From an uncultured cyanobacterium (GTDB lineage: Bacteria > Cyanobacteriota > Cyanobacteriia > Pseudanabaenales > Pseudanabaenaceae): a DNA stretch of 64,000 bases. The position numbers and the translations under genes are program-made. Of this stretch, positions 17,688-36,154 are shown one piece after another (the first letter of the stretch is position 1; every line of letters begins with the position of its first letter). The notes under the pieces are model-generated. The model did no database searches, had not been told where the DNA came from, and saw only the letters and a list, made by a program, of their open reading frames with translations. Where the stretch lies: NCBI GenBank assembly GCA_963703315.1, contig OY969811.1:3776001-3840000 (forward strand), given 5' to 3'.

Positions 17688-19334
17688 CTAATGTTGCAAC
17701 AAGGCAGAACGAGGAATTACCCGCATAATCTCTTTGATAGTTGTTACTCCTTGTAAGACCTTCTCGATCGCGGCAACTCGAAAGGACTGAAAATCGATAC
17801 TGCGTAGGTAAAGATCTAGTTGCGTCGATGTACCTTCATAAATAATTTGACGCATCGTGTCATTGATTTCTAATAGCTCAATCACTGCTTCACGGCCCAA
17901 GTAACCCGTATGAAAACATTTAGGACATCCTTTGCCTTGTCTGCATTTTTCCAAATTAACTGTAGATCGGTCTAATCCAATCACTTTCAATTCGGCATCA
18001 CTAGGGACATATACTTCTGCACAGTGTGGACAAACACGGCGAACAAGGCGCTGAGCAATCACCCCTAACAAAGCATCACTAACTAGACTTGAGCCAAGAT
18101 CTTTAAGTCGAGGGATAGCACTAGGTGCATCGTTGGTATGCATAGTGGTCAAAACCAAGTGACCAGTCAACGCCGCCCGAATTGCAGTTTCTGCCGTCTC
18201 ACTATCGCGCACTTCGCCCACCATAATAATGTCGGGATCTTGGCGGAGAATTGAGCGTAATCCTGCGGCAAACGTCATACCTGCGGCTTCATTGACTTGG
18301 GTTTGAGTAATATTTGACAAGACATACTCCACAGGATCTTCGACAGTAGTGACATTGACGCTTTTAGAGGCAATTACTTGCAAACTGGTATAGAGCGTGC
18401 TAGTTTTCCCAGAACCAGTGGGACCAGTAAAAATGATCATTCCCTGTGGTTGATGTAGCCAGCTTTCATAGGTTTGACGTGACTTTTCCGTAAATCCTAG
18501 ATCGGCAATACTCGAAAAGGGATTTTCTTGTGGAAGTAACCGAATTACAATTTTTTCTCCATTAACGCAGGGAAGTGTACTAACACGCATATCTAATCCC
18601 TTAGCATGATGGTCGTCACTAGTATATTTTTCACCAATACGCCCATCTTGGGGAATCCGACTTTTGGCAATATCCATTTCTGCCATCACTTTAAGCGCAA
18701 CAATAATTTTGCGGCTAATTGCTAAAGGTAATACTTGAACATCTCGCAAAATACCATCAACACGAAAGCGAATCCGTAATCCTTCTTTGGTTGGCTCTAG
18801 ATGAATATCGCTAGCACGGCTCTGCAAAGCACTAGTAATTATTGCCTTGATACGACTGATTTGATCTGCTGCTTTGGAGAGATGCATTTCTGCTGTCTCT
18901 GCGATCGCCATTGGGGCAAGTTCATCGGCAAAGGGAATGTCTGTCTCTGATAGAGAAATGAGATCGTTGCGAATATTTTGTTTGAGAAACCATTCTTGAT
19001 AACTCTTTTTCGTAATTGATACGACTTCAACAGTCATGTCCATCAAGTTACTAATCCTCTTGATGTCCAGTTCTGAAATTGTCTCAGGAACCCCAATGAA
19101 AAAACATTTTTGCCATAATAGAAGTGGGATAGCCTTTGGTAATCCTGTCTGGTTACGAGCCTGACGCAAGAAGAGTCCACTCAATTCTGTGTCCAGCAAA
19201 TTAATGTTTACACTTCCATCTAAATTAACAAGTCTAGTGATTGCTTCTTCACATGATATTTTGCCAGTTTTAAGTAATTGCCAAGGGGTTGAGGGAACAA
19301 TAGATAAATTAGGTGTGGGGGATTTAGCTTGCAT
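17688..19334 (-). CDS. GspE/PulE/PilB-family secretion ATPase (paralogue)
   Basis: ASDIHLEP, PQDGR, Walker A GPTGSGKT, LRQDPDIIMVGEVRD, AALTGHLV, CPHC...CPKC; ATG at 19334 or TTG at 19352. Confidence 0.93.
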   Translation of the reverse strand: MQAKSPTPNLSIVPSTPWQLLKTGKISCEEAITRLVNLDGSVNINLLDTELSGLFLRQARNQTGLPKAIPLLLWQKCFFIGVPETISELDIKRISNLMDMTVEVVSITKKSYQEWFLKQNIRNDLISLSETDIPFADELAPMAIAETAEMHLSKAADQISRIKAIITSALQSRASDIHLEPTKEGLRIRFRVDGILRDVQVLPLAISRKIIVALKVMAEMDIAKSRIPQDGRIGEKYTSDDHHAKGLDMRVSTLPCVNGEKIVIRLLPQENPFSSIADLGFTEKSRQTYESWLHQPQGMIIFTGPTGSGKTSTLYTSLQVIASKSVNVTTVEDPVEYVLSNITQTQVNEAAGMTFAAGLRSILRQDPDIIMVGEVRDSETAETAIRAALTGHLVLTTMHTNDAPSAIPRLKDLGSSLVSDALLGVIAQRLVRRVCPHCAEVYVPSDAELKVIGLDRSTVNLEKCRQGKGCPKCFHTGYLGREAVIELLEINDTMRQIIYEGTSTQLDLYLRSIDFQSFRVAAIEKVLQGVTTIKEIMRVIPRSALLQH

Positions 19335-19371
19335 AGTTTCTGATAAGTTCAATATGGTTACTTACTAGATT

Positions 19372-19401
19372 CATTCTGTCGAGTTGATAGGTTCTATGCA
19401 G
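19372..19401 (-). promoter_or_regulatory. Putative alternative-sigma promoter, copy 1
   Basis: Minus strand CTGCATAG-N14-ACAGAATG, about 38 nt upstream of the ATPase ATG. Confidence 0.6.
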
Positions 19402-19502
19402 ACCTTACGAAAAAACTAGCGTCATGCTCATCTAAAATTCGTTATCGCGCCTAGCAAGTAGAAGATGTTTCTACCCATTAACTTGTACTCCTAAAAAAGA
19501 AA

Positions 19503-19558
19503 ATTAGGCAAGTGGTGATGTTTATTGAATTTTCAATAAACATCACCACTTGCCTAAT
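19503..19558. terminator. Perfect 27-bp-arm palindrome downstream of the lectin-peptidase gene
   Basis: ATTAGGCAAGTGGTGATGTTTATTGAA-TT-TTCAATAAACATCACCACTTGCCTAAT. Confidence 0.65.
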
Positions 19559-19626
19559 CTGTGGAGTAACTTGATGTATATAGTTTGGCTGATGAGAAGC
19601 AGCAAACTTTAAGCTTGCTCAGTATC

Positions 19627-20697
19627 CTAAGGACGTGTGAGGGCTTTTCTAAAGTGATCGTTTACACCAACAACATCTGGTAAATCACCAACTCCTATAA
19701 GCTGAAATCCATTAGCTGCTGTCATGGGGACTGAATTAGCATTACATAATGCATTAGGTCGTCCTTCAATATGAATATGAGAATAGCCACCATTAACAGA
19801 ACTTGCGCGGGAAACAACTCCCAATTGCTGACCAGCATTTACTCTTGCTCCATTAGCTACTTGGCGATCCATGTGACCAATCAATAAAGCACGGTTGTTC
19901 CCAATATCTAAACAAACCAAGTCTCTGTCAACATATCGAGCAGTACCAGCGGACGGAGCTAGAACAGGCTGCCCTGCTGATTTACTAGTATTGCCATCAT
20001 AAGCATAACAACCACTGGAACCAAAATCTTTATTAGTGATTGTGAGATCTAAACCAAAAATACTACGTCCTTTATGGCTAATACCATTGTTCTGATATCC
20101 TTGACAAACAAACCAAGTCTGACCACTTTTAAAAGGCAAGAGAATCTGTCCAGGAGGGGGAGGAACTATCGTTCCTCCGTTAATTTTGAACCTCTGATTC
20201 ACACCAGAATTGCATTGCCAGAGAGTGACTGCACCTCCATCATTACGAGTAGGACTGTCAATGCAGAATCGAACATTATTCCTGATCTCAGAAAGTCTAA
20301 TCTGGACATCACCGTTGGACAGGTTTTCAACATTGAAATTTTGGTCAAGATCATTGGCGTTACAGGGATAAACATTGACCTCAGCCCCATTCCATCGACG
20401 ATAGGCATTTAGGCATTTACCAGTGCTGCGCTGACGTAAAAGTTGACCGCCTCTAGCTCCTTGCAATCTATCAAAGTGTTGATCTGCATCATTAAAGTTG
20501 TGTGTCCAAATAGACATTCTTGGATGCCCGTCAATTAGACGGAAGTTACGATTAGTGTTAAGCGCTTTATTGCTATTATTAATGACAAAAGTTTCGGCAG
20601 ATGCAGCAGCACTGAGAATAGTAACTCCAGCGAGGATCGAAAAAGAACTGGCAACTAGTGCTAAACATTGTTTAGGATTCATAATACCTTTAGCCAT
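19627..20697 (-). CDS. Secreted ricin-type beta-trefoil lectin fused to an M23-like peptidase
   Basis: Signal peptide ending ASA; GKCLNA, YPCN..D.DQNF, FCID, WQCN..VNQRF lectin motifs; SH....GLD, VLAPSAG and HIH M23 motifs. Confidence 0.8.
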   Translation of the reverse strand: MAKGIMNPKQCLALVASSFSILAGVTILSAAASAETFVINNSNKALNTNRNFRLIDGHPRMSIWTHNFNDADQHFDRLQGARGGQLLRQRSTGKCLNAYRRWNGAEVNVYPCNANDLDQNFNVENLSNGDVQIRLSEIRNNVRFCIDSPTRNDGGAVTLWQCNSGVNQRFKINGGTIVPPPPGQILLPFKSGQTWFVCQGYQNNGISHKGRSIFGLDLTITNKDFGSSGCYAYDGNTSKSAGQPVLAPSAGTARYVDRDLVCLDIGNNRALLIGHMDRQVANGARVNAGQQLGVVSRASSVNGGYSHIHIEGRPNALCNANSVPMTAANGFQLIGVGDLPDVVGVNDHFRKALTRP

Positions 20698-20771
20698 AAT
20701 GATTAATACCTTGAAGTAGATTGAATTAGTTGAAGCAAAATATTAGAGGTGCGATTTTTGAGAGAAAATTG

Positions 20772-21080
20772 TTAGTTAATCCATCGTAGATTTTGAGCTT
20801 GAGAAGAAGAGATGCAAACTACATTTCCATCTTTCTCTCGACATACGACCTGATCGTTTTGAGTAAGAGTTTGCCATTTAGACCAATCGAAAAAGGTTGG
20901 AATAAAACCGACACTCTTATTTTGAGAGGGGTTTTCAATAAGGTTCCCATTAGCATCAGTAAATACAGATTCATCACCACCTCCAGCCAGAGCTTTTGGG
21001 GTATTGAAAATAATGCTAAGAAATCCAATAGATGATAGAAGTAGTAAACTTCTTTTAAGAGATACTTTGTTTGAGTACAT
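20772..21080 (-). CDS. Small secreted hypothetical protein
   Basis: 102 aa, signal peptide ending ALA, paired Cys (VCR...VCI), AGAGG Shine-Dalgarno upstream. Confidence 0.65.
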   Translation of the reverse strand: MYSNKVSLKRSLLLLSSIGFLSIIFNTPKALAGGGDESVFTDANGNLIENPSQNKSVGFIPTFFDWSKWQTLTQNDQVVCREKDGNVVCISSSQAQNLRWIN

Positions 21081-21239
21081 TCATAGATTCCTCTATATGA
21101 TGGTTAGCAAATTAAATGATTCAATGTTTATGAGTCCTTATTTCAGAACCTACATATTCTTTCTGTAAGGATTGAGAAGCTATACACTGAACTTAAATAT
21201 TTTTTGTTGAGTGGATTTGCTTCATCGCTTACATTTATT

Positions 21240-21269
21240 TCTTCTGTGGAGTTCATGGCACTTATGCAG
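21240..21269 (-). promoter_or_regulatory. Putative alternative-sigma promoter, copy 2
   Basis: Minus strand CTGCATAA-N14-ACAGAAGA upstream of the 21080 and 20697 genes. Confidence 0.6.
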
Positions 21270-21361
21270 CGATTAACTAAAAACTTTTTTTACTTGCTTT
21301 GTGAGTTGACAAAAATAGGAGAGTCTACAACCATTGCAGCCTCTCCTATGGGTTTACTAAT

Positions 21362-21571
21362 TTAGCGGAAGCCCTCAATAATGACCAGAATCAAAACTAG
21401 GCAAATCACTATAAACATGGTGCGCCATAGTCCAATTAAAAAGGTGGGTAATATTTCAATAACGATCGCATAGCCACCAAAAACTGTGGGTAAAATAAGA
21501 GCGATCGCTAGTCCTGCGATCGCAAACATCAGAAACTTAAGTAAATGAGGGACAAAACGCAACATAGACAT
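21362..21571 (-). CDS. Small two-TM membrane protein
   Basis: 69 aa, two hydrophobic helices, GGAG Shine-Dalgarno upstream. Confidence 0.6.
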   Translation of the reverse strand: MSMLRFVPHLLKFLMFAIAGLAIALILPTVFGGYAIVIEILPTFLIGLWRTMFIVICLVLILVIIEGFR

Positions 21572-21669: not shown

Positions 21670-21699
21670 CTGCATAAAAGGCGATCGCTGATCAGAATA
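21670..21699 (+). promoter_or_regulatory. Putative alternative-sigma promoter, copy 4 (autoregulatory position)
   Basis: CTGCATAA-N14-TCAGAATA, about 50 nt upstream of the sigma ORF. Confidence 0.6.
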
Positions 21700-21748: not shown

Positions 21749-23239
21749 ATGCGATCGCTACAGTCAGTCATTTTTGAGCAGGGAAAGCGCATGAGCTTAG
21801 CAAAACGCAGTTTGAGAAAAAAATTTTCAACATTTAAAGGATCGGGATCGGAATGGAGCAGTCCAAATTCAACGCTACTAAAAAATATAGAAAGACTCCT
21901 AAATTTGGAAGACTTTCGTGATGCTAAGGAAGAAACTGTAGCTCTTTATTTCGTAAAGTGCCTGAGTAGTAGCAATGAAAAAGTTGTTGAACTAAGTCGC
22001 CAACACCTAATTGCTTATGCCCAAGAGCATTGCTATCATGCTTGCAAAGAGCTATGCAAGAAATTTAATAAGAACGAAAAAGACGAGATTTTTGAAGATT
22101 GTTTTCAAGCTGGCAATATGGCAATCTGTCAAGTTAATTTCTTTACTAATTACAGACCACAAAGTGGCAATACACTTGGGACTTACATTAGTAACGCAGT
22201 TAAGAAGAAAGCTATTGAAATCTTGACTGGCGGTGGGAATAATGTCAGAAGTAATTGGGGATTATTAGCTATTGTGTCAAAAAAACAAATAAAAGAAATT
22301 TTACCTTTAATCCCAGAAATATCTTCAGGTCGAGAACAGCAAAACTACATTCAAATACACAAATTCTATAAGGAAATTTGCAAACCTTCAAAAACTGGCA
22401 AGAAAAGAGAAAAACCATCTGAACAACAACTTCAAGCAATTTGTGATTGTTTCAATAAAGTTTACCCTCACAAACTACAAACTGAAGAAGCACTAGAAAT
22501 GCTCCGTGATTGTATTGCTGCACTTAGGGAACAACAGAATTTTATTGACTCACGAGGATTAGATGCGCCATTGGGGGGTGAAGATAATAGTACTTTGCTA
22601 ATTGATACTATCTCATACGATAGTGAGCCAAATATTATCGATGAAGGTGATGATTCTTACTTCGGATCAATTCGTGAAGGATTAGTTCAGATTGTTGCAC
22701 AAGACTTAGACTCGTTGGACAATGATAAACAAGGAAAATTCACTTTTTTGCATGGATTTGATTGTACGACAACTGAAGTTGCGAATCTTTATAAAGTAAA
22801 TCAATCAACTATCTCAAGGCTTTATAATCCAATTGTTGAGTCCTGCTTAAATTACAGCAAAACTTTTGTTAGTGATTTTACTGATGACACATTCTTAATT
22901 AAGGCTTTACGTGATTGGCTGAAGCAACATCTTGCATTTATTTACACTAGTTTGCTTTATGAAGTTGTCGATTCACTGGTTATGAGTCAATTGCATAAGA
23001 CAGAAATATCTTTTTTGAATGATTTGAGAGTAACTGGGAGGACGGAGCAATTGGCGCAAAATTTGAATCAATCAACAGAATATATAAATGAGGAAAGGAA
23101 AAGATTAAAAGATGCAATTACAGGACTGGTAGTTAATCATTTAAAAACCAATTTTAATATCCTTGCACCACTTTATCCTGTAGCTCCAAAAATTGATGAA
23201 TTTATCGATAAGTGGATGTGCGATCGCCCTACCAACTAA
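21749..23239 (+). CDS. Divergent sigma-70 family RNA polymerase sigma factor (DUF1822-associated type)
   Basis: Region-2-like HLIAYAQEHCY..EDCFQ, region-3-like LDAPLG, HTH TTTEVANLYKVNQSTISR; alternative start at 21791. Confidence 0.72.
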   Translation: MRSLQSVIFEQGKRMSLAKRSLRKKFSTFKGSGSEWSSPNSTLLKNIERLLNLEDFRDAKEETVALYFVKCLSSSNEKVVELSRQHLIAYAQEHCYHACKELCKKFNKNEKDEIFEDCFQAGNMAICQVNFFTNYRPQSGNTLGTYISNAVKKKAIEILTGGGNNVRSNWGLLAIVSKKQIKEILPLIPEISSGREQQNYIQIHKFYKEICKPSKTGKKREKPSEQQLQAICDCFNKVYPHKLQTEEALEMLRDCIAALREQQNFIDSRGLDAPLGGEDNSTLLIDTISYDSEPNIIDEGDDSYFGSIREGLVQIVAQDLDSLDNDKQGKFTFLHGFDCTTTEVANLYKVNQSTISRLYNPIVESCLNYSKTFVSDFTDDTFLIKALRDWLKQHLAFIYTSLLYEVVDSLVMSQLHKTEISFLNDLRVTGRTEQLAQNLNQSTEYINEERKRLKDAITGLVVNHLKTNFNILAPLYPVAPKIDEFIDKWMCDRPTN

Positions 23240-23283: not shown

Positions 23284-24744
23284 ATGATGTTAATTCTAAA
23301 AAATGGGCTTGAACTTGAATCTATTCTCGAAGACCAGATATGTTTATCTATTCCTAAAGAATATCAAACAGAAATATGGGATAAACTACAAGGATATTCC
23401 TATCCTACGGCAAAGTGGACAGCTTATCTCAATCGCTTGACTTTAGAGTTTATAATTCCATACTTTAAACAAACCTATGATTGTGAAATAGCACTGGCTC
23501 CAATTCCTAGAAATCCTGATAGTGTTTGGGAATATGTGACAGGCTTTGCGCTGACGATTGACGGTAACCGGGTAATCGTGATTCCTGATGAGACTGATAG
23601 TGATGAGTTTGAGATCCCCTTTGAATGGGTTGATATTCCTTCATGGGCTGGGGAATATTATCTAGCGGTGCAGATCCGTCCTGATAATGGTTGGTTGAGA
23701 GTCTTTGGCTTTACGACACATCAGCAGATTAAACAGAAAGCTGAGTATGACTCTGTGATGAAGACTTACACTTTGTCGCAGGAGCAAATCATTGATGATA
23801 TGGAGGTTTTGTTGACATCATTGGCGATCGCCTCTAACCAAAAAGTAGCAGTCCCCGCACTGACAGTGATCGCCACACCTCAACAGAATCAATATCTGAA
23901 TACTCTTAAACAGCCTAAATTATATTCTCCTCGCCTTGAGCTATCCGCCGAGCATTGGGCAACCGTTGTCAGTGATGATGACTTGCGGGAGAGACTATGG
24001 CAGATGAGAATAATTGAATCATCACGATCGCAGAAAATTGTGCAACAAAAAACAACTTGGCTAAGTCTATTGCGTGAAAAGCAGAAAGTATATGGGGCTT
24101 ACTTTGCTGATGAATTCATGAGAACTAAGGAAGAAATTGCGGCACTATTTAATATTGAACCAGAATTGCAACTTGTAAGGTCAGTAAGACGATCAACGTC
24201 AACTATTGATAACTCAGAGAGAGTTGCAGAATTAATTGCTTGGGATAAATCGGAATCTGATCTAGGTATTAGGCTTGACTTCTTAAAACTCTTAGCAAAA
24301 GTGGGTGAAGGCAGTAATGCAGCAATTGAGTACTTCAGTTCAATACAAGAAAATGAGACAGAGGATCTAACAATTCGCCGTGAGGCTGCAATTTGCTTGA
24401 GTGAGATTGATCCATCTCATCGTAATGCTGGTATCAGGCGGGTACAATTGATCGATATTACTTATCGACTTAAAGATATCAAGCTTTCTTTAGAAGTGAC
24501 GATGATCCCATTTACTCAAGATAGAGCGCACGTTCACTTTCGTTTAACTGCACCAGAAGAAAGTTCTTTGCCAGATGGTCTTGTTTTGGCAGCGATCGAC
24601 CTTGATAGTGATGTAATCTTTGAAGAACATAGTGGAGAATCAGATCCATTTTTGGAGAGAAGTCTTGATGAAGAATATGGTGGATATTTCTACATCAAAA
24701 TAAGTCTTGATGGTGTCAGCGTTCGGTCAGACTTTAGAGTTTAG
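23284..24744 (+). CDS. DUF1822 family protein with HEAT-like insert
   Basis: WTAYLNRL, SVWEYVTG, IPFEWVDIPSWAGEYYLAVQ, GFTTHQQIK; C-terminal LPDGLVL beta domain. Confidence 0.85.
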   Translation: MMLILKNGLELESILEDQICLSIPKEYQTEIWDKLQGYSYPTAKWTAYLNRLTLEFIIPYFKQTYDCEIALAPIPRNPDSVWEYVTGFALTIDGNRVIVIPDETDSDEFEIPFEWVDIPSWAGEYYLAVQIRPDNGWLRVFGFTTHQQIKQKAEYDSVMKTYTLSQEQIIDDMEVLLTSLAIASNQKVAVPALTVIATPQQNQYLNTLKQPKLYSPRLELSAEHWATVVSDDDLRERLWQMRIIESSRSQKIVQQKTTWLSLLREKQKVYGAYFADEFMRTKEEIAALFNIEPELQLVRSVRRSTSTIDNSERVAELIAWDKSESDLGIRLDFLKLLAKVGEGSNAAIEYFSSIQENETEDLTIRREAAICLSEIDPSHRNAGIRRVQLIDITYRLKDIKLSLEVTMIPFTQDRAHVHFRLTAPEESSLPDGLVLAAIDLDSDVIFEEHSGESDPFLERSLDEEYGGYFYIKISLDGVSVRSDFRV

Positions 24745-24753
24745 AGGTGTATT

Positions 24754-27270
24754 ATGAAAAGAATCTTTCAAAGCATATCAACTCTGTGGCAAAAATCTTT
24801 TGCTGGTTCTAGCTCACCATCACAAATTTTTCTAGGTTTGAAGGGTGAAGATGTTTTAGAATCGCCCAAAAATCCAAATGAGACTAAAAGTTTATCAGTT
24901 TCATTGTATGAGGGGCATTCTAGGATTATTGAAGATATTAACTTGCCTATTACAAAAGAGCTTTTGGATGTTATCAAACAATTTCCTACTCTTTTGGAAG
25001 GAAGAAATTCAGGCACTCCTAGAAAAGCTAAATCAACTGAAAACGAACAGACTAGCAGTAAGCAAACTGATGCCAGTAGTTCGTCTGATAAAATTGCTGA
25101 AAGGTTAGAGAATGTGATCAATGAATTAACTACTGGTCACAAGGGATTCAGAATAGTAAGAGATAAAATTCGTGACAAATTAGTTAATAGTCAATTGGCT
25201 TATAGTCTGCCACAACCAGAGTTTTTCATTCAATATAAAGATCCCAATATTGCTCAAATTCCATTCCATAAGTGGGAAATCTTAGAATCATTTGAGATCG
25301 AGCCTGTGTTTAGTGAATTTAATGTTAAACTTTGTGATCATTCTTACAGCAAGAGAAAAAATCCTCGCATCCTGATTGTTTTAGGTAATGCGTACAATCA
25401 TGGACAAGATAATCTTAACTTACAGGCTGATATTGAAGAATGGAAAGCTGATTCTCTACCTAATGTGGATATAACAACTATTACACCTTTGAATTATAAA
25501 GATATCGATTCTCAATTATGGGAAAAGAAATGGGACATTTTATATTTTGCAGGTCACAGTGATACTAAAAATGGTGAAACTCTGATTGAGCTTAATAACG
25601 AATTTAAAATAAGTTTAAAAAAACTGCAAGAGGGTCTAAAGATAGCAGTAAAGAAGGGCTTAAAATTAGCTATTTTCAATTCCTGCGTGAGTTTAGGGGC
25701 AGCAGCCGACCTACATCAAGCTGGTGTGCCAGCAGTTATAGCTATGCGTTATGCGATCCCTGATACTGTTGCTCATACTTTTCTGAAATTCTTCTTGCAA
25801 GAACATTTAAACGGAGGTAAATCGGTTAGTGCGGCAGTACAAAGAGTTAGAAAACGTTTTAAAGGGCTTGAAGATCAAGGTGATAAAACCTATATATTCG
25901 CTAGTTGGTTGCCTGTTGTTTTTCAAATTCCTAGTATTGCAAATCCTCCTAGAACTTCGCTGTTGCCAGTAATTGCCACCTCATTTTTTGTAACTTGCCT
26001 AGTTTTCTTTCTCCATACACAAGGCATATTTCAAGGAGCCGAGCTATCTCTATACGATCACATGATGAACTCTCGACCTGCCGAACCTCTCAATCCCAAT
26101 ATAATATTAGTGAAGCCAACACTAGCTGATCAAGTATGGCAGAAAGAACAAGGTGAACAATTGCAGGGGGATGAATCAATAGGTGATAAACATTTATGGA
26201 AACTACTGGAGAAATTAGATGAAGCGAAACCAAGAGTGATTGGTATGGCTCTTTGGCGAGGGTATTCAAAATCCGTAGATCCTGAGAGTAAAAAAAGAAT
26301 TGATAATAGGTTAGCAAGTACTCAATCGCCAATTTTAGTTTCTAATTGTGCAACTAGAACCAAAAATGATGAGCCAGATCGGCTTCCTCCTGAAACTATC
26401 AAACTTGGTCATCCTCATATTGGATTTACAAATTTTTCCATTGATAGATATTTTGACAATACCCTGAGAAGATTAGTATTGATTAGAAGAGATGATCAGA
26501 GTGCTTGCAGTAAACTCACCAATATTTCTTTCCCATTTCAAATTGTCTTAGACTATCTAGGAATATCATTTCAAGAAGTAATAGATGGATTAAAACCTTT
26601 AGAAGGGAAAGTAAGCATTGAGATGAAAGGTGTTTATCTTTCCAATATTACAACAAAGCAAGGTGGGTATCAAGTTAATCCTTCAGATGAAGGATTATCA
26701 AATCAACTAACAATTCTTTTTAATTACAAAAATCATGATGGTTACAGTCCCGATACAGATTACAACCAAATTTTTTCCTTAAAAGAAATTCTTTCCCTTG
26801 ACAAAGAATCATTGAAAGACATGGTTCACGATAAGATAGTTGTAATTGGTGGTTCTGGAGAAGAATCATTTAATTTCCCTTCCAGTAAGAGCAACATTAA
26901 ATCTATTGCACATTCATATGTTCATATTCAAGCTATTGATTATTTGTTGAGAATTTTTAATTCTAAAGGAGCCAAGATATTAGATATTCTCAAAAATAAT
27001 CTATTTCTTTTTTTGTATAGCTTACTTTATATATCGTTTGTATCAATTATCCTACAAATGATAATTCATAAGTTTGATAAACATCAATTTATTTCTTTGT
27101 CCATAGCAATTTTACTCGCCACGCTTATCATTTTTTATACTCATCAAATTATTTTGGCAAAATTATTATTATGGATTCCCTCTATACCAATACTATGGGG
27201 TATTATAGTCTCCAGTTTTGTTCTATCTTTTTACAAATTTATAAACATCTACTACAATAGAAATAATTAG
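24754..27270 (+). CDS. CHAT (caspase-like) protease - TM - CHASE2 sensor - 3 TM
   Basis: YFAGHS and LAIFNSC (His/Cys dyad), ASWLPV, ELSLYDHMM..RP, PRVIG, DKIVVIG; three C-terminal TM helices. Confidence 0.85.
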   Translation: MKRIFQSISTLWQKSFAGSSSPSQIFLGLKGEDVLESPKNPNETKSLSVSLYEGHSRIIEDINLPITKELLDVIKQFPTLLEGRNSGTPRKAKSTENEQTSSKQTDASSSSDKIAERLENVINELTTGHKGFRIVRDKIRDKLVNSQLAYSLPQPEFFIQYKDPNIAQIPFHKWEILESFEIEPVFSEFNVKLCDHSYSKRKNPRILIVLGNAYNHGQDNLNLQADIEEWKADSLPNVDITTITPLNYKDIDSQLWEKKWDILYFAGHSDTKNGETLIELNNEFKISLKKLQEGLKIAVKKGLKLAIFNSCVSLGAAADLHQAGVPAVIAMRYAIPDTVAHTFLKFFLQEHLNGGKSVSAAVQRVRKRFKGLEDQGDKTYIFASWLPVVFQIPSIANPPRTSLLPVIATSFFVTCLVFFLHTQGIFQGAELSLYDHMMNSRPAEPLNPNIILVKPTLADQVWQKEQGEQLQGDESIGDKHLWKLLEKLDEAKPRVIGMALWRGYSKSVDPESKKRIDNRLASTQSPILVSNCATRTKNDEPDRLPPETIKLGHPHIGFTNFSIDRYFDNTLRRLVLIRRDDQSACSKLTNISFPFQIVLDYLGISFQEVIDGLKPLEGKVSIEMKGVYLSNITTKQGGYQVNPSDEGLSNQLTILFNYKNHDGYSPDTDYNQIFSLKEILSLDKESLKDMVHDKIVVIGGSGEESFNFPSSKSNIKSIAHSYVHIQAIDYLLRIFNSKGAKILDILKNNLFLFLYSLLYISFVSIILQMIIHKFDKHQFISLSIAILLATLIIFYTHQIILAKLLLWIPSIPILWGIIVSSFVLSFYKFINIYYNRNN

Positions 27271-28192: not shown

Positions 28193-29461
28193 CTACCAAG
28201 GGTTCCCGATGAGTGTAAAGGCGCTCCACGAAGATGGATGAGATAGCTTTGGATCTTTGGATAGACTAAGGCTAAGTTGCGTATTTTTTAAAGCATTGGC
28301 TTTGATGATTTTAGTATTAAATTTAAGTTCTTGATATAACTTTTCCATAAAAACAGGGGATTCTTTATCTCCTATTTTCCATAAAGTGCCAATTACAGAC
28401 TGTACACCTATTCTTGCAGCTAATCCTGCAAATCCCTGTTCTGATTTGATATTGCCTTGAGCCGTTTGACAAGCACTAAGAACAAGCATAGCTACTGTAG
28501 GATTATTCCAATTAAATTGACGAATCTCATTAAAACTAAATGAACCATTTTTAAAGTATATTTCTCCAATCCCATTTGTCTCATTAAATTTAGCATGAGT
28601 GGCTAGATGAATAAGACCAAATCCAATCGGATTATATAATTTGTCTTTTACTTGCTCAATATCTTGATTTAAATTTTGTTGTGTCATCCATATTTTAGTA
28701 ATCTTGGTTAGCTCTTCTGGAACACCAGGTAACTGCGTTTGTGATATGGGTTTTTCAAATCTAGACGCTCCAATTGCTAGGAGATTTTTATCGTGTATGC
28801 TAGAGAGCCTTGTATCAGTTAAAGATAAGCTTGGCATTACCCCAACGCTGTAATCCGAAATAATATAATTATTCTGTTCATTGATCAAAGCAGCAAATGG
28901 TGTTTGTCGTAATGCATCAGGTAAGACAAGAGTGAGATTATCAATAGCTTGATTTTTTAAAGAATCATATAATGGCTTGATGAGCCATCGGTATAATTGC
29001 TTAGAGGAATCTATATGCTTTGTTTGATTTCTAGGATTGTAGTTAGATATATTTGTTCTGAAATTCTCGACACGATCTTTTAAATCCTTTCTGCGGATAT
29101 ATTGACCAGAATCTTTAACAGGAATATACGCAGGTTTGCCTTTGGCGGTTACTAGGGTTAGTTCTAGAATATCGCAAGAGTCAACGTCTTTAGTAGTTTC
29201 TAGCTTGACTGGTTCAGGATATGGGAGGGTGGAATTAATTGGAGGATTGTAACAAGGATCTTTAGGATCGCGTTGCGCCTTCCGATCGCCCATTCGATCA
29301 GGAAGGAAAGTTACATAGAGTAAAGCAGGATTCACTCCAGTTTCATTTTGCACACGGCGCAAGGTTTCTTGGATTTCTGCAAGTGTCATCACCTTAACTG
29401 GTTTGAGATCGGGAATAGAGTCGCTGAAAAACTTTTCAAACTCTCTGGTGTAAAACTCTTC
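28193..29461 (-). CDS. CHAT domain; C-terminal part of a frameshifted TpsA-CHAT fusion
   Basis: QLYRWLIKP, IHLATHA, LVLSACQTAQG, GTLWKI, WSAFTLIGNPW; frame stays open upstream of the GTG at 29392 (EEFYTREFEKFF...). Confidence 0.85.
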   Translation of the reverse strand, partial: EEFYTREFEKFFSDSIPDLKPVKVMTLAEIQETLRRVQNETGVNPALLYVTFLPDRMGDRKAQRDPKDPCYNPPINSTLPYPEPVKLETTKDVDSCDILELTLVTAKGKPAYIPVKDSGQYIRRKDLKDRVENFRTNISNYNPRNQTKHIDSSKQLYRWLIKPLYDSLKNQAIDNLTLVLPDALRQTPFAALINEQNNYIISDYSVGVMPSLSLTDTRLSSIHDKNLLAIGASRFEKPISQTQLPGVPEELTKITKIWMTQQNLNQDIEQVKDKLYNPIGFGLIHLATHAKFNETNGIGEIYFKNGSFSFNEIRQFNWNNPTVAMLVLSACQTAQGNIKSEQGFAGLAARIGVQSVIGTLWKIGDKESPVFMEKLYQELKFNTKIIKANALKNTQLSLSLSKDPKLSHPSSWSAFTLIGNPW

Positions 29462-32400
29462 GGGGGGAAGGGGGCGCGATCGCCTTCATCTACCCACTGC
29501 ACTCTAGGCGGCTCTTTGAGTGGCTGTGTTGCTAAGAAAATCGTGAAATTTGGGGCGGTGATAATCTGGATATTACCCTGTGTATAGGGACCTGGAAACG
29601 ATCGCGCTGTAAAGATGGTGTTTCCTGCGCCAGTAGTCAGAACTCCATCAGTTCCATTAATCAAGGAGCTAAAGACATTAAAAGGCTCAAACCTTGTGCC
29701 GCCGTCATGACGAATGATAATCACCCCGTCTCCTGCTGTCCCTGCGGTACTGATACTGGCTACCAATCCATTTTGGTCAATGAAAGTACCACTAATCCTA
29801 ACAAACCGATTCGATGTCAGATCGACAGTCCCGCCAACACCTCCAAACCCTTGAGCATTGATCGCCCCAGTGAATATATCTAAGAGAGGATCGAGGAAGA
29901 TATTACCGCCACTGCCTGATAATCCCACAGCACTGAGAGTTCCAGTTGTGATGGAGGTGAGTGCTTGGATGTTGATGTTACCGCCCGATGTGCCATTGAC
30001 ATTGAGATTGCCTGTATTGACGATGCCCTGTGGTGCTAATAGGGTCAGGCTATTCCCAGCCCCCACCGCAGAGGCGAGGTTGATATCTTGAGTGGTGACG
30101 TTGCCTGTGGCTGCGTTGATGGTGAGATTGGCGGCGGTTCCTGCTTGAATGTTGATGGGCGCAACAATATTAATATCGCCATTGAGGGTGCTGAGGGTGG
30201 AAGTACCTGTAATTGTAGTGGGATTGGAGATCTGCAAGCCATTAGTTGTGTTAATGCCGCCTGACATAGAGATATTGCTGGCATTGAGGCTGATGGTAAT
30301 TAGGCGATCGCTTGCTCCAAGTGCGCCATTGAGATTAATGTTGCCAGTACCAGCATCGAGTGTTAATCCAAAGTTATTTCCAGTCAGACTATTAACAGTT
30401 CCATTGGTGCTAATGTCGCCGTTATTGCTATTGATTGCGATGTTTGTGCCAAGTCTTGTATTGCCCGTGAGTGTTAGTGCTTGACCAGTAGTTGTGATAT
30501 CAGCATTGAGATTAATCCCTACTGGAGATATTAAAGTGGCTGAAGTGTTGAATGTGATCGGAGCAGTAACTGAGATACTGCCAACACTAGCATCACCAAT
30601 GGAAAGCATTACACCAGTAATCGAGGCGATCGCAGTTGATGTCAGGTTAAATGAGTTGGAATCTGTACCACCTAAAACGATATTTCGATTTGCTGAACTA
30701 GGTTTTAAGATGAGAGTATTCGTTCCAGTAATCGGTGCGGTTAAATTGATCTGATCAGCAATCGCTGATACAGCATTACCTCCTGCGGCAAGTCCTCCAT
30801 TGAGTGAGATAGTTCCAGTTCCTGCATTGAGGGTTGATGCTGCTGTAGTAGTTAGCAATGAGTTAAGAGTAATATCGCTATTAGCTGTAGTGATATTGCC
30901 TTTCAGGTTTGTGGTTTGGGCGGCTATCGTCACTCCTGTGAGGGGAGTTGTACTTCCAATTGCTCCTTGTAAGTCAACAGTTCCTGTATTGGCGATTATA
31001 TTGAGAATTTTTGCGCCATCAATGGTACTAGTAAAGGTGATATTTCCGCTATTTATCGCACTAGTATTTAGGGTGACTTGAGGTTGGATTTTAGAAGCCA
31101 AAGATGTATCTAAGTTTGGATTTAGCAATGGATCTAGAATAAATTTGCCATCAAAAGTAATATTTCCTCCTGCTATGCCTAAACTAGAACCTGTGACTAT
31201 GGATTGTACAAAAGTAGGATTACTGGAATCTTGAACAAAATAAGCACCGATAGTTCCATTTCTTGCACTTAGAGAAACATCTCCACCTCTACCAGAATAT
31301 GAGCTAGAGTTTAAGTTAAATACGGTGATATTGCCTTCAGAACTAGTGATATTTATATTACTTGCGGTCTGATTGTTGTTATAACTTACATCTGTGGCGA
31401 TGCCTCCTAGTCCAGTAACGATATCTCCTTTTGCTTCTATTCTCACCGTTCCAGAATTACGGATTGCAGTACTTGCTGCTGCTACGCTTTGACTATCAGC
31501 ACCAGCATCTAAGATAGAGTTACCGTTCATCGTGATAGAGCCATTGGGACTCAATAACTCTATATTGCCTGCCCGAAGACTAACGGCTATATCTGTACTT
31601 TGGGGAAAGGTCTCAACCCCACATTTACCTGCTAATGTAGTTGCACAACTAAACAAGATATTTCCATTATTTGCTTTGACAGATACATCTGCTCCATTAC
31701 CAGATTGAGAAAATGCTCTTAATAGACCCTCAACAGTTACACTTCCTGCGGATTCAATGCTAATTTTCCCAGCATTGCCACCCAATACAGAGGCAGGTGT
31801 AGATATAGAGGAGGCGGTTGTATCAATGGATGTTACCGTAATATTTCCTGTTGTAGTCTTGAGACTAAATGCTCCTGAATCTCTGCCTCCAGAAGTCTGT
31901 AAGCCCCCAGAAGTTGCTGAAGCATTGTTTACATTAAGATTGATATTGTCAAAAGCATTAATAGATACTGCTCCCCCCTGACCACTGGCGGATCTGGTAA
32001 ATATGCCTCTGCTATTAGACATATTGATATTTCCGTTCGTACTCGTGATTGTAACATTACCCGAATCCCTACCATTATTAAATTCTAATGCTGTACTTAT
32101 AAACCCAGTTTCTATATTTATGTCATCTCTAGCTGATAAGGTTATTGAGCCTGTGATGCCATCACTACCTGAAGCGGCATTAAGCGCCGCATTATTACGC
32201 ATAAAGATAGAACCATTTTCGCTTTTTATGCTAATATTCCCAGAATTACCAAGACCTGATAAAGGAGCGGCAGCAGCTCCTGGAAAAGTTTCCACACCAC
32301 AAGCTCCTGCGTACAGACTGGTACAATTAAATGAGATATTTCCATTTGCATTGACTAAAACATCGCCACCATTAGCAAAATCAGAAAAAGCACGCAATAG

Positions 32401-34242
32401 AACACTAACTGTAAAATCTCTCTTAGAATCAATTGTGATATTGCCAGCATTCCCACCTCCTAGACCAAGAGAGACAACATCAATTCCTGCTATTGTAATG
32501 TCACCTGCCGTAGTTTTAAGATTGATACTTCCTGCATTACCTTCTGCCCCAAAAGTACGAGCAAGAATAGTACCAGCAGTTATATTTGCTGCTTCTATTG
32601 TAATATTTCTTCCTCTAGCTTGCAAATAGCTATTCGAGGGCATCGAAAAAGTTCCTCCTGCTGCTTTAAAATTTACTAAGCCAGTTCCAGTTTGAAAAGT
32701 TAATACTGGAGAAAGACCTATATTTGACTCAACTAAAGATTCAGTAAGGGGTCCAATCGTAATATTATTGGTTGCTTCAAGAATAATATTTTGGTTTGAA
32801 GCTAATGCTTCAAGTGTTGCTTGGCTAATAGTGATAGTTCCAGAAAGATCGGTTTCAAAAATATCAGGCAAGCCTCCATCTATAACTGGAACACCTGCTG
32901 AATCAAGCACATTATTTGCAATAATAATATTGTCAGGATCGAGCAATAATGTACCTCCTTTTCCGATCGCTGCATTAAGATCGACTTTTCCATCAAAAAC
33001 AAGATTCTGTTTACCTGAAACCTCAACAAAACCACCATCACCAGAAATTGCTCCCCCACGCGCACTAATACTTCCAAAAAACCTCGCCGCATTATCCGCC
33101 CATACAATTACTCTCCCTCCATTACCAGACTGCAACGCATCCGCCTTAATCGTCGAATCTGCACTCACAAAAGTCATCAACGCATTCGGGATTACTCCCT
33201 TACCCTGAAAATCCCCACCAATAAATACCGAGCCACCACCATTCACACCCGAAGCATCGATATTTGCACTCACTAAACCAACGCGATCGCCTAATATCTG
33301 AATCTTAGGCGTAACTTGAGAAGGATTAACCACAGTCGAAGCAACCGACACATTCCCACTCACGATCGCAGTTCCCGCCGTATTCGGAATCACCGTCTGT
33401 GAATTGGTTAATTGCGCTTGCCCCTGACTATTCAGCGATATACCCGAACTACTATCCAGCTTGCCAGTAGTTAACAAACTGGGCAGATCCAAAGCTTTAA
33501 CTGGTAAGTCATTGCCTTGAGCATCCTTTGGTTGTGGAAACTCAAAACTTAACCCCTCCACCCCGACATTTAGCCGCAACCGACCATCAGGTATAGCGAC
33601 AATGCCAACCGAACCATTAGGCGCAGAGATGGTTCCCGTATTCACCACAGTTGACGCGGCAAGAGTTACCGACTTGCCCTCATCAACTGTCAGATTGCCA
33701 GAGTTAACGATCGCAGCAGGATTATTCGGATCAAACTCTAAACCAGTCAGGTTGCCTGTCAGATTGCTGTAATTAGGATTATAAATATCCAGATTGCGAT
33801 CGCCAAACCAAGCAGTTCTCGCTGTCGATGCTGTGAAACTCCCATTAACATTTAGTTGAGCATTATTACCAAAAATGAAACCCGCAGGATTTAACAGATA
33901 TAAATTCGCATTCGAGCCTGTCACCTGAATAGTGCCATTAATCACCGAAGGATCGCCCCCAGTCACCCCACCAAGTATATTCTGCACCTGTGGCAACACT
34001 ACAAAATTAGCCGTTTGACCAGTCTGGACATTAAACCCTTGGAAACTGTGAAAGACATTTGCGCCATTTCCTGACGTAGTTCCGCCCCTAATATCAATCC
34101 GATCTCCATTTGGCAAAACTACCGTTCCCGTTCCGTTATTTGCAGGCACGATCTGCACTTGCGCGATCGCAGGCAAAGCTTGAAAAATTTGTAAAGAAAA
34201 TGCAACAAATAAAACCCGAAGCCCATTCATAGCTAAGCGCAT
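29389..34242 (-). CDS. Filamentous haemagglutinin family TpsA exoprotein (N-terminal part)
   Basis: Signal peptide ending AIA-Q; TPS domain NVFHSF..FNV and NLYLLNPAGFIFG; GGFVEVSG, GTLLLDP; beta-helix repeats. Confidence 0.92.
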   Translation of the reverse strand: MRLAMNGLRVLFVAFSLQIFQALPAIAQVQIVPANNGTGTVVLPNGDRIDIRGGTTSGNGANVFHSFQGFNVQTGQTANFVVLPQVQNILGGVTGGDPSVINGTIQVTGSNANLYLLNPAGFIFGNNAQLNVNGSFTASTARTAWFGDRNLDIYNPNYSNLTGNLTGLEFDPNNPAAIVNSGNLTVDEGKSVTLAASTVVNTGTISAPNGSVGIVAIPDGRLRLNVGVEGLSFEFPQPKDAQGNDLPVKALDLPSLLTTGKLDSSSGISLNSQGQAQLTNSQTVIPNTAGTAIVSGNVSVASTVVNPSQVTPKIQILGDRVGLVSANIDASGVNGGGSVFIGGDFQGKGVIPNALMTFVSADSTIKADALQSGNGGRVIVWADNAARFFGSISARGGAISGDGGFVEVSGKQNLVFDGKVDLNAAIGKGGTLLLDPDNIIIANNVLDSAGVPVIDGGLPDIFETDLSGTITISQATLEALASNQNIILEATNNITIGPLTESLVESNIGLSPVLTFQTGTGLVNFKAAGGTFSMPSNSYLQARGRNITIEAANITAGTILARTFGAEGNAGSINLKTTAGDITIAGIDVVSLGLGGGNAGNITIDSKRDFTVSVLLRAFSDFANGGDVLVNANGNISFNCTSLYAGACGVETFPGAAAAPLSGLGNSGNISIKSENGSIFMRNNAALNAASGSDGITGSITLSARDDINIETGFISTALEFNNGRDSGNVTITSTNGNINMSNSRGIFTRSASGQGGAVSINAFDNINLNVNNASATSGGLQTSGGRDSGAFSLKTTTGNITVTSIDTTASSISTPASVLGGNAGKISIESAGSVTVEGLLRAFSQSGNGADVSVKANNGNILFSCATTLAGKCGVETFPQSTDIAVSLRAGNIELLSPNGSITMNGNSILDAGADSQSVAAASTAIRNSGTVRIEAKGDIVTGLGGIATDVSYNNNQTASNINITSSEGNITVFNLNSSSYSGRGGDVSLSARNGTIGAYFVQDSSNPTFVQSIVTGSSLGIAGGNITFDGKFILDPLLNPNLDTSLASKIQPQVTLNTSAINSGNITFTSTIDGAKILNIIANTGTVDLQGAIGSTTPLTGVTIAAQTTNLKGNITTANSDITLNSLLTTTAASTLNAGTGTISLNGGLAAGGNAVSAIADQINLTAPITGTNTLILKPSSANRNIVLGGTDSNSFNLTSTAIASITGVMLSIGDASVGSISVTAPITFNTSATLISPVGINLNADITTTGQALTLTGNTRLGTNIAINSNNGDISTNGTVNSLTGNNFGLTLDAGTGNINLNGALGASDRLITISLNASNISMSGGINTTNGLQISNPTTITGTSTLSTLNGDINIVAPINIQAGTAANLTINAATGNVTTQDINLASAVGAGNSLTLLAPQGIVNTGNLNVNGTSGGNINIQALTSITTGTLSAVGLSGSGGNIFLDPLLDIFTGAINAQGFGGVGGTVDLTSNRFVRISGTFIDQNGLVASISTAGTAGDGVIIIRHDGGTRFEPFNVFSSLINGTDGVLTTGAGNTIFTARSFPGPYTQGNIQIITAPNFTIFLATQPLKEPPRVQWVDEGDRAPFPPKSFTPESLKSFSATLFPISNQLR

Positions 34243-34447
34243 AGATCCTATCCCTGATTCACTTAAGCCCTAAATTACTCAAAAATCATATAAATCCAGC
34301 TTTTGAACTTAAATCTATATTTTTCTGATTAATTGGCTAGCAATATATAGCAAAAAGGTGTATAAATCACGCACTTACCGACAATTTTTTTGGGATTGTC
34401 AGTTTAAGTCAGTAAAAAGCATTTATCTTAGGGGCGAAAGTCAGTCT

Positions 34448-36154
34448 ATGTTGTTCACTAAGCTTATATCTAAAGCTATATTTAAGATTCATGTATTCGT
34501 GATCACGATTTTTTGTGGCGGGAGTTTGAGTGTTGGAATCACGTCAACGGCGATCGCGCAATCAAACTTAGATCATCCAAAAACAGATAATGAAGCTTTT
34601 ACCATTACTGATGTCATCTTCAGAACTGAAAAAGGCGAAAGTCAAATTTATACAGACTACGATTGGGAACCATATAGGAGAGCAATCCGATGGAAAGATG
34701 ACATGACCAAGGCAAAGATAGATATTATTCTGAATCAACTAATTACCGACCTTTATCTTAATAAAGGGTACATAACCTCTAGAGCCACAATTCAACTAAA
34801 GAACATTTACCTCCCTACAAGGACTGCCACCATAGAAATAATCGAAGGAGGCTTATGCAAAATTAAGTGGGATGAGTCACAACCAACAACACGGTTGAAC
34901 AGAAACTATATTCTTGATCGCATTCAAATTCCTAATACTATTCCCCTCAATATCAACCGACTTGAAGATCAACTCCGACTTTTAAAAAATGATCCCCAAA
35001 TTGAAAATGCTGAGTTCACCATTGAACCAGCCGCAAATGAGCCAAATTGTCAGAACCCACTAATTAAACCAGAAAGAAGTTCCAATATCTTGGTTCGAGT
35101 AAAAGAAGCAAATCCTTTAAGTATTAGTACTTCCATAAATAACTACTCACCACCCAGTGTCGGCGGAGAGCAGATAGGCGTAAATGCTAGTCATCAGAAT
35201 CTTACAGGAATTGGCGATCGCCTTAGTCTTAGCTACAATCGCTCCTTTACAGGTGGCTCTAATATCTATGACTTCAGCTATTCAACACCGATAAACCCCA
35301 TGAATGGCTCTCTCAATTTGCGAACAGCACTTACCCGTAGTACAATTACAGAAGTTCCATTTGATCGGTTTGGCATTGCCGCCAAATCCCAACTCTACGA
35401 AATTCAATATCGCCAACCCTTCATCCGTTCATTCGTTGAAGAATTTGCCCTTTCCTTTGGATTCACCGCCAAAGATGGACAGACATTTTTATTTAACAAT
35501 CTCGCCACTCCCTTTGGCTTTGGAGCGGATGTTAATGGCATCACCCGCACCAGCGTATTCACCTTTGGACAAGACTATCTCAAGCGTGACGAACAAGGAG
35601 CTTGGTTCTTTCAGTCAGCCTTTAAATTAGGAACAGGATTAGTAAATTCCACAATCAATGCTGCCCCTATCCCTGATAGCCGTTTTTTAAATTGGAACCT
35701 TCAAGGTCAGCGCTGGCAAAAAATAAATGACGATAATCTCTTGATCCTCCAAGCCGATCTGCAATTAACACCAGATAGCCTCTTACCATCAGAGCAATTT
35801 ATCGTTGGTGGTGGACAAACCCTCAGAGGCTACCGCCAAAGTGCCAGATCTGGCGACAATGGATTTCGTTTTTCTGCGGAAAATCGAGTCACGCTACAAC
35901 GCAACGGTGCAGGACAACCAACTTTTCAGATTGCACCATTCTTTAATATGGGTTCCGTTTGGAATCGGGACGATAATCCTAATTTTTTAATAGGTCAAAA
36001 CTTTTTAATGAGTCTTGGCACGGGGCTGATTTGGGAACCTTTCAAAAATCTAAATATGCGCTTTGACTATGCAATTCCTATCACAGCGATCGAAGATCGC
36101 AAAAATAATCTCCAAGATCAGGGGCTTAACTTTAGCTTTAACTATAAATTTTAG
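34448..36154 (+). CDS. ShlB/FhaC/HecB family TpsB outer-membrane transporter
   Basis: POTRA YLNKGYITSRA, EQFIVGGGQTLRGY (VRGY-type motif), terminal FNYKF; ATG at 34448 preferred over GTG at 34358. Confidence 0.93.
   Translation: MLFTKLISKAIFKIHVFVITIFCGGSLSVGITSTAIAQSNLDHPKTDNEAFTITDVIFRTEKGESQIYTDYDWEPYRRAIRWKDDMTKAKIDIILNQLITDLYLNKGYITSRATIQLKNIYLPTRTATIEIIEGGLCKIKWDESQPTTRLNRNYILDRIQIPNTIPLNINRLEDQLRLLKNDPQIENAEFTIEPAANEPNCQNPLIKPERSSNILVRVKEANPLSISTSINNYSPPSVGGEQIGVNASHQNLTGIGDRLSLSYNRSFTGGSNIYDFSYSTPINPMNGSLNLRTALTRSTITEVPFDRFGIAAKSQLYEIQYRQPFIRSFVEEFALSFGFTAKDGQTFLFNNLATPFGFGADVNGITRTSVFTFGQDYLKRDEQGAWFFQSAFKLGTGLVNSTINAAPIPDSRFLNWNLQGQRWQKINDDNLLILQADLQLTPDSLLPSEQFIVGGGQTLRGYRQSARSGDNGFRFSAENRVTLQRNGAGQPTFQIAPFFNMGSVWNRDDNPNFLIGQNFLMSLGTGLIWEPFKNLNMRFDYAIPITAIEDRKNNLQDQGLNFSFNYKF

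Follow-up and report, generated by a model that had tools for sequence, protein, structure and literature searches.

Caspase-like proteases joined to the sensor domain CHASE2, in a gene neighbourhood with ECF (extracytoplasmic function) sigma factors and DUF1822 proteins, were described computationally by Kaur, Iyer, Burroughs and Aravind in 2021 (PMC8195603). Section 9 of that paper proposes that autopeptidase activation ends in sigma-driven transcription, and assigns no anti-sigma role, promoter or regulon. Two other anti-sigma proteins, CalpT and Csx30, are cut outside the N-terminal domain that binds sigma, and degradation and release follow, or are proposed to follow (bioRxiv 10.1101/2024.05.08.593097; PMC10028731). 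Here we analyze a related locus at positions 17688..36154 of a 64,000-nucleotide stretch of contig OY969811.1 (the window), which comes from an uncultured Pseudanabaenaceae cyanobacterium with a complete genome; the closest named homologues of its DUF1822 protein are from Pseudanabaena. The comparisons draw on 48 genus genomes (the window genome, G000, and 47 congeners, among them G203, G178, G169 and G164) and 151 phylum genomes; a genome designated G025 carries fusions of a DUF1822-like domain to a zinc motif; kin are nowhere counted as independent.

An original prediction, made from the sequence of the window, had proposed a cascade in which a surface cue acts through DUF928 and CHASE2 on a cytoplasmic CHAT protease, which cleaves DUF1822 and frees a sigma factor to switch on adjacent genes, and had held that no such mechanism was described. 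Its anti-sigma step now has a structural model of binding behind it and its regulon a shared motif, whereas the claim of novelty fails because a path from proteolysis to sigma was already proposed in PMC8195603. In our best overall explanation, to which we assign a probability of about 0.5, the locus would be a mobile, self-contained, protease-gated sigma switch.

The sigma factor and its predicted inhibitor

The sigma gene (21791..23239, + strand; the open reading frame opens at 21749) encodes a divergent sigma-70-family factor of 482 amino acids. By predicted structure its membership in the family is clear, by sequence it is borderline, and binding to RNA polymerase is putative. No Pfam sigma family matched it and TIGR02937 scored 42.8, just under the cut-off of 42.9; the best 50 Foldseek matches of its model are all RNA polymerase or sigma entries, with E-values from 8e-4. 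The model contains sigma-2 (residues 44-150; structural match with Z 8.8, root-mean-square deviation (rmsd) 3.0, 96 residues aligned), a SANT/Myb-like insert (150-252), a flexible linker, sigma-4 (285-357; Z 7.1, rmsd 2.4, 65 aligned) and a helical tail. Besides the two folds, region 2.2-2.4, the helix-turn-helix and the conserved residues D103, F105, Q106, Q338 and R343 are present, and the sigma-4 recognition helix is the most conserved helix of a family with 808 clusters at 50% identity (E up to 1e-30). ECF (group 4) sigma factors consist of sigma-2 and sigma-4 only, with a short linker between them. The window sigma is not ECF by architecture, since about 135 residues with the SANT/Myb-like domain separate the two and a 120-residue tail is added.

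The next gene (23284..24744, +) encodes the DUF1822 protein, assigned by Pfam and predicted to be an anti-sigma from its model and from co-folding. Its model, with a mean local confidence (pLDDT) of 89, comprises a restriction-endonuclease-like domain (18-186), a helical bundle, a disordered RSVRRS loop (298-303) that is the least ordered loop of the protein, a HEAT insert (306-380) and an Ig-like C-terminal domain (383-485). Foldseek gave no clear match for the model as a whole. The N-terminal domain resembles PD-(D/E)xK nucleases, namely I-Ssp6803I (Z 8.3, rmsd 3.2, 117 residues aligned), Hjc (8.0), DpnI (7.7, rmsd 3.8, 140 aligned) and D212 (7.7); the four matches span 113-140 residues and their Z scores are moderate, near the common background. 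With the motif placed by eye, no conserved catalytic Asp or Lys was seen on the core strands in 96 aligned rows, where column 88 is Ala in 58% and columns 96-100 are hydrophobic with Pro. We conclude with moderate confidence that the modelled domain has a nuclease fold that is catalytically dead.

Co-folding of sigma with DUF1822, a check suggested along with the original prediction, gave a score of 0.78 against 0.00 for the best of three controls; 116 of 157 solved and two of 215 mismatched pairs attain that score, counts that are rough with our own alignments. Runs share 98% or more of their contacts, and the pLDDT of the partners does not fall below 83. In the model, the DUF1822 N-terminal domain lies over the SANT/Myb-like insert of sigma, the end of sigma-2 and the recognition helix of sigma-4, including Q338, S342 and R343, with 11 basic and 6 acidic residues on the sigma side of the interface and 4 and 11 on the DUF1822 side. 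Foldseek and structure comparison found no similar solved complex. The lengths of the two proteins co-vary (Spearman 0.70, n=113), and the sigma insert occurs together with a DUF1822 helical segment in 44 pairs, neither occurs in 45 and only one of the two in 24. The model makes it quite likely that the N-terminal domain holds sigma over sigma-4 and the SANT-like insert, where as a predicted anti-sigma it would occlude the promoter-reading surface.

The same role is suggested by G025, where a DUF1822-like N-terminal domain (hhalign probability 87-89%) is fused to the zinc anti-sigma domain zf-HC2 (25.5 against a cut-off of 22.2) in two proteins (L233:670-1905 and L234:1480-2598). Both carry the HxxxCxxC motif and have no predicted membrane helix. 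The profile comparison with the window family stops before the zinc motif and gives no support for homology between the DUF1822 helical bundle and an anti-sigma domain; the gene before the first fusion has only a weak sigma-4 match.

DUF1822 could instead be a DNA-binding co-activator or chaperone of sigma that applies its nuclease fold to promoter DNA, with the protease ending the response or cutting other targets. Its fold matches DNA-binding nucleases such as I-Ssp6803I and DpnI, and its sigma-facing side stays 74-92% identical while sigma drifts to 37%, as if its partner were invariant. Because the recognition helix of sigma-4 lies buried in the model, facing an acidic surface, and given the zf-HC2 fusion in G025, we regard the co-activator role as rather improbable.

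Between G000 and G203 the first 200 residues of DUF1822 are 78-88% identical and those after residue 250 are 22-52% identical; this variable C-terminal half may dock on the cytoplasmic face of the CHAT-CHASE2 receptor described below. Scored by pattern count rather than by column-wise alignment, a linker motif of the small/hydrophobic-Arg-Ser/Gly type occurs in 68 of 110 DUF1822 proteins compared with 25 in shuffles (maximum 38), and one linker Arg is invariant in 13 close relatives of the window protein. The Arg-Ser motif is thus a candidate cut site for the CHAT protease, as judged from sequence.

DUF1822 matched 98 of the 151 phylum genomes, about half of them weakly, and 22 of the 48 genus genomes. 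Among 57 small-genome relatives in the phylum, 49 have one weak match each (family f24), and in the nine examined (L229-L232, L235-L239) the match is the N-terminus of an open frame of 935-1244 amino acids. Two of these long proteins had no Pfam match, in loci too short to show C-termini or downstream genes.

The receptor protease and the exported arm

The operon continues with the receptor protease (24754..27270, +) and an exported DUF928 protein (27307..28134, +), the four genes being separated by 44, 9 and 36 bp, in keeping with the tight operon originally described. The receptor has a degenerate N-terminal domain, a CHAT domain, a transmembrane helix, CHASE2 and three further helices. The hydropathy profile shows no N-terminal signal; it has a single helix at 402-420 and three more at 753-823, in agreement with the proposed topology of CHAT inside and CHASE2 outside. 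The His and Cys said to be kept in both CHAT domains of the locus are indeed present (H268/C311 in the receptor, H266/C308 in the separate 399-residue CHAT frame), and the dyad is kept in 74 of 75 DUF1822-adjacent CHATs and in 65 of 69 in a second homologue set. Against our own profile of 49 N-terminal domains, used to look for an EACC2 domain before the caspase, the window receptor scored E 8.4, G203 0.004 and G178 1e-5; its N-terminal domain is 28-38% identical to those of the latter two. A HetF model scored the receptor at 25, with a cut-off of 1200. It is plausible that the cytoplasmic CHAT cleaves DUF1822: a periplasmic signal at CHASE2 would activate CHAT, which would cut after the linker Arg, the N-terminal fragment would be degraded and sigma would be set free, a sequence of events to which we give even odds.

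The gene order also recurs beyond the genus. We examined 120 regions of up to 20 kb around DUF1822 matches, taken from the top of the match lists and hence biased and inclusive of kin, and tallied 119 DUF1822 genes of at least 280 amino acids, with G203 outside the tally. The gene before DUF1822 is a long sigma in 62 cases, a short sigma-4-like gene in 50 and neither in 7; these same upstream genes served to build the short-sigma profile, and 6 of 44 gave Pfam Sigma70_r4_2, all below the cut-off. A CHAT gene follows DUF1822 in 74 of the 119, 49 of these with CHASE2, while a trypsin or C14 protease takes the CHAT slot in four. DUF928 comes directly after 30 of the 49 CHAT-CHASE2 genes and after none of the 25 other CHATs (Pfam confirmed DUF928 in 29 of 38 proteins submitted), and two-partner secretion (TPS) genes lie near 14 of the 49 CHASE2-type loci compared with 6 of the 70 others. 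Gene-neighbourhood analysis was among the checks proposed with the original prediction. Twelve loci (L050-L056, L058, L059, L063, L066 and L067) carry a pair of sigma (about 390 amino acids) and DUF1822 (about 385) genes with no adjacent protease gene; the printed pairs of this kind keep the linker Arg motif (GARS), which suggests a protease acting in trans.

The CHAT protease might cut itself rather than DUF1822, in a loop of the receptor N-terminal domain, and so release a tethered DUF1822-sigma complex, along the lines of the autoproteolysis proposed in section 9 of PMC8195603 and raised for DdvA in PMC11506125. A partly conserved Arg does occur in that loop (R56%/R59% in two columns, 54 rows). 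This self-cleavage is unlikely, in our judgement, given the enrichment of the linker Arg motif of DUF1822 (68 of 110 versus 25), its place in the least ordered loop of the model and the ability of unrelated proteases, trypsin and C14, to fill the CHAT slot.

Upstream of the receptor in the proposed order of signalling stands DUF928, which carries a conserved G-x-x-R-G-x-C (R64, C67) in a Gly-rich stretch behind the signal peptide, with the Arg kept in 93% of 45 rows; this Arg is the basis of a speculative outer cleavage step. The second CHAT domain belongs to a protein encoded convergently (28193..34242, -), a fusion of about 2016 amino acids (by arithmetic) of the TPS exoprotein TpsA with CHAT. 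The deposited sequence splits it into two open reading frames, TpsA (29389-34242) and CHAT (28193-29392), in different frames, so the single gene of the original prediction is not what was deposited. It is most likely one gene all the same: a 2493-nt short-read contig from run X1 (0 mismatches, 1 gap; possibly the source sample, hence not independent) carries an additional base in the homopolymer that follows 29461, another strain's contig, from run X3, has one at 29464, and the fused protein exists in G178 (1969 amino acids) and G203 (1768). The frame break is therefore a probable one-base assembly error near 29461, and in view of the extra base in the short-read contigs we reject a programmed frameshift or a pseudogene. 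Divergent from it lies TpsB (34358..36154, +; Pfam ShlB), a ShlB/FhaC transporter, which together with the TPS-domain exoprotein makes up a two-partner secretion system.

Elsewhere in the genome (about 15 CHAT, 8 TPS and 5 TpsB genes in all), further TPS/CHAT/DUF928 clusters lie on G000:C1 at about 1255300-1263200, 2684500-2698900 and 2900700-2905100, one with CHASE2 and none with DUF1822. Since G000 has another copy of the TPS/CHAT/DUF928/CHASE2 gene set that lacks an inner CHAT or DUF1822, this arm is modular. DUF928 might pair with CHASE2, and the exported CHAT on TpsA would probably process it; we find this input arm doubtful. The order from surface cue to DUF928 to CHASE2 is the weakest part of the scheme, with co-occurrence as its basis.

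TpsA-CHAT might also be a contact-delivered polymorphic toxin and DUF928 its immunity protein, both unrelated to the sigma operon. C-terminal caspase domains occur as toxins in other lineages (PMC3482391), and the CHAT tip and DUF928 vary between congeners, with 51-54% and 27-34% identity. The tip is CHAT in all three island copies, with no swapped toxin, and at other loci CHAT forms a protein of its own, next to a TPS gene and with a signal-like N-terminus; moreover, in loci chosen around DUF1822, 35 of 40 DUF928 genes are at most two genes away from CHASE2, compared with 13 of 40 near a TPS gene. These points leave the toxin explanation very unlikely.

The protease-gated switch can be extended to a trans-envelope cascade of two caspases with a Toll/Spaetzle-like logic and strain-specific private channels, although as a joint claim this is improbable. 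The TpsA CHAT would stay periplasmic and, upon contact or damage, would cut DUF928 at its conserved Arg to make a CHASE2 ligand; the inner CHAT of the receptor would cut the nuclease-fold anti-sigma, and the freed sigma would set in motion the secretion of wall hydrolases tagged with a lectin. The strain-specific alleles of sigma, receptor and DUF928 (27-40% identity in the same slot) would keep the channels private. If true, this would add a new class of anti-sigma and a CHASE2 ligand.

The island and its shared promoter-like motif

All genes named by the original prediction were found in the place and orientation it gave, each with Pfam support except sigma; matches above the cut-off were T2SSE, Ricin_B with M23, DUF1822, CHAT with CHASE2, DUF928 (29.4 against 26 bits), CHAT, TPS and ShlB. 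Together they form an island that reaches from pilB on the left to TpsB on the right, where a kinase gene follows. We found 45 matches to the flanking gene rph in the 48 genus genomes and cut out 30 loci, of which 28 remain when G000 and G203 are left out. In 23 of these rph and the kinase gene directly adjoin, and the interval 17688..36154 is hence an insertion; two of the remaining five loci stop at a contig edge and three contain other genes. The slot upstream of rph, which holds other gene sets in L225 (G178:C3) and L227 (G158:C314), may be an insertion hotspot. The four-gene operon has a GC content of 35% compared with 42% for the genome.

G203 carries the same island in the same slot, including pilB, the lectin-hydrolase and the small gene, and G178 has the six signalling and secretion genes at another location. 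Identity between G000 and G203 is 95% for backbone genes, 92% for pilB and 81% for TpsB, compared with 37% for sigma, 40% for CHAT-CHASE2 and 32% for DUF928. Three scans for related loci gave no match, and the island copies are those of G000, G203 and G178.

The motif CTGCATA-N16-CAGAA occurs three times in the 4.57 Mb genome, each time oriented before a unit of the island and with a different spacer sequence. The first copy (21670..21697, +), 94 bp before the sigma start, is also found in G203 and G178 and is a candidate autoregulatory promoter of the sigma operon. A second (21242..21269, -) lies 162 bp before the gene of a 102-residue exported protein (20772..21080, -), which is 68% identical in G203 and has no known family by Pfam and other profile searches. 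The same unit includes an exported protein with ricin-B lectin and M23 peptidase domains (19627..20697, -), whose slot in G203 holds a ricin, B-lectin and CHAP protein. The third copy (19374..19401, -) stands 40 bp before the ATG of an accessory PilB/GspE-like secretion ATPase (17688..19352, -; T2SSE), the third paralogue in the genome; G203 and G169 retain this site. A terminator-like hairpin (19507..19554, -), a perfect 20-bp inverted repeat conserved in G203, separates it from the lectin-M23 gene. The divergent promoter region also holds an open frame for a very hydrophobic protein of 69 residues (21362..21571, -), overlooked originally, with no Pfam match; in G203 and G178 conservation is seen at the DNA level.

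With one mismatch allowed, no further copy was found in the window and none before TpsA or TpsB. The chance value for the motif in the window is 0.01, and for a match of two neighbours to sigma's own site we arrive, post hoc, at about 1e-6. TGCATA lies upstream of 30 of 67 long sigmas compared with 92 of 676 other genes, and across loci the site of a given sigma is seen again ahead of 23 of 509 neighbours compared with 464 of 50574 controls; across the sigma family there is no single -10 consensus. G203 keeps all three sites and G178 the sigma one. The original prediction's regulon of pilB, lectin-peptidase and small-protein genes therefore gains from a promoter-like motif common to them and the sigma operon within one insertion; given the insertion limits and the motif, we dropped the idea that these genes are chance neighbours. 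It is likely that the window sigma reads this motif and drives its own operon, the small exported protein, the lectin-tagged hydrolase and the PilB ATPase. At G000:C1:4557148 (+), outside the window, a one-mismatch copy precedes a gene of at least 2630 amino acids with a metallopeptidase-like HExxH motif, a possible distant regulon member.

The pilB module is found in five other places with no cassette (L190-L194, in G169:C56, G203:C5, G211:C2, G176:C16 and G171:C89), and the pilB unit is thus mobile by itself. Its partners there are secreted CHAP-SH3, M23-ricin or NlpC/P60 hydrolases and exported proteins of 99-117 amino acids, and PilB, hydrolases and small proteins are possibly a dedicated wall-hydrolase export module. 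Three of these places adjoin a WCX-domain gene, a Csx3-like gene and CRISPR-like repeats, the repeats being judged by eye. Near the 119 DUF1822 genes, PilB, M23 and the small gene occur 1, 0 and 0 times, so that the target genes are local and not universal. In the window, the unit appears to be wired to the island sigma.

Several observations weigh against the switch as a whole. TpsA and TpsB have no motif; chance alone would give about 0.8 motif copies per genome, and at least one is present in 26 of 47 congeners; other spacer lengths give 0-4 copies in the genome; and the -10 half of the motif was derived from the island itself. G169 keeps the pilB site with no detectable long sigma or DUF1822 match, and G164 has a copy of the small-gene site with no DUF1822 match. 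To these add the five cassette-free pilB modules, the six-gene cassette of G178, with no pilB, lectin or small gene within 20 kb, the 41 of 119 DUF1822 genes with no protease gene next to them, and the restriction of nearby TPS genes to 14 of 49 CHASE2-type loci. At the modelled interface, conservation of the sigma residues (15 and 18 of 58) does not exceed that of the remainder (148 and 147 of 424), although the DUF1822 side is 74-92% identical.

Some of these facts would fit a motif read by another, core regulator, with the pilB/lectin unit an independent mobile module that merely shares the island, as the site in G169 and the separate occurrence of module and cassette would suggest. Yet in the G000 genome no gene beyond the island is preceded by the exact motif, four pilB copies (72-74% identity) read with their flanks have none, and the G169 contig is only 6.3 kb long in an assembly that is 96% complete. 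We consider a core regulator improbable and favour the island sigma as the reader.

Comparison with known systems

The core gene set and the idea of proteolysis leading to sigma are already known from the computational work of 2021; the modelled anti-sigma interface, the DUF1822 fold, the island limits, the three-target motif, the allele divergence and the candidate cut site are new here. Within the literature searched, two papers mention DUF1822 and one DUF928, despite the large sigma family and the 98 of 151 genomes with a DUF1822 match. In the literature searched, with subscription papers and most supplements out of reach, we found no experimental study of the core gene set and nothing joining the CHAT domain, CHASE2 and cyanobacteria; the main text of the ECF reclassification (PMC7826278) mentions neither DUF1822 nor CHAT. 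If correct, the proposed switch would add a new fold to the anti-sigma proteins and a new pathway to the alternative sigmas of cyanobacteria, and would provide caspase-like signalling from the envelope outside CRISPR; the island offers testable parts in the modelled interface, the candidate cut site, the candidate promoter and the three target units.

With the EACC2-caspase systems of PMC8195603 the locus shares the three-gene core, that is, a caspase with CHASE2 and transmembrane helices and adjacent sigma and DUF1822 genes. It differs in the degenerate N-terminal domain of its receptor and in DUF1822, which is labelled TPR there and has a modelled nuclease fold, HEAT insert and Ig-like domain here; we found no TPR match in DUF1822, the model showing a four-helix HEAT-like insert and a beta-sandwich in its place. 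DUF928 is absent from the main text and supplement 3 of that paper (12 other supplements were outside the search).

HetF, which cuts PatU3 in Anabaena (PMC9457339), is likewise a membrane-anchored cyanobacterial CHAT and cleaves its regulator after an Arg (R117-S118), but it has a periplasmic TPR instead of CHASE2, and its substrate is not called an anti-sigma in the available text. DdvA-DdvS of Myxococcus (PMC11506125) also combines CHAT with sigma and anti-sigma in one envelope-spanning switch that controls an island; its CHAT is periplasmic, part of the anti-sigma and incomplete at the active site, whereas the window CHAT is cytoplasmic, separate and has an intact dyad.

Csx29-Csx30-CASP-sigma of type III-E CRISPR (PMC10028731) shares a CHAT protease, sigma binding by the N-terminal domain of the anti-sigma and three sigma motifs in its own locus. 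Its protease is a soluble, RNA-triggered TPR-CHAT, in contrast to the receptor described here, and DUF1822 goes unmentioned in that paper. Among 23 window proteins scanned between 5039 and 46039 we detected no Cas or SAVED/CARF family, the rest of the genome not being searched. A parallel by description is CalpL-CalpT-CalpS (bioRxiv 10.1101/2024.05.08.593097), where a dedicated protease cleaves a two-domain anti-sigma with a nuclease/toxin-like (MazF-like) N-terminal domain at a place of little structure, the fragment is degraded and sigma is released. That protease is a Lon gated by the CRISPR messenger cA4, whereas the island would use a CHAT under a periplasmic CHASE2, another nuclease fold and no CRISPR link; by analogy, the system probably works like CalpL-CalpT-CalpS without CRISPR.

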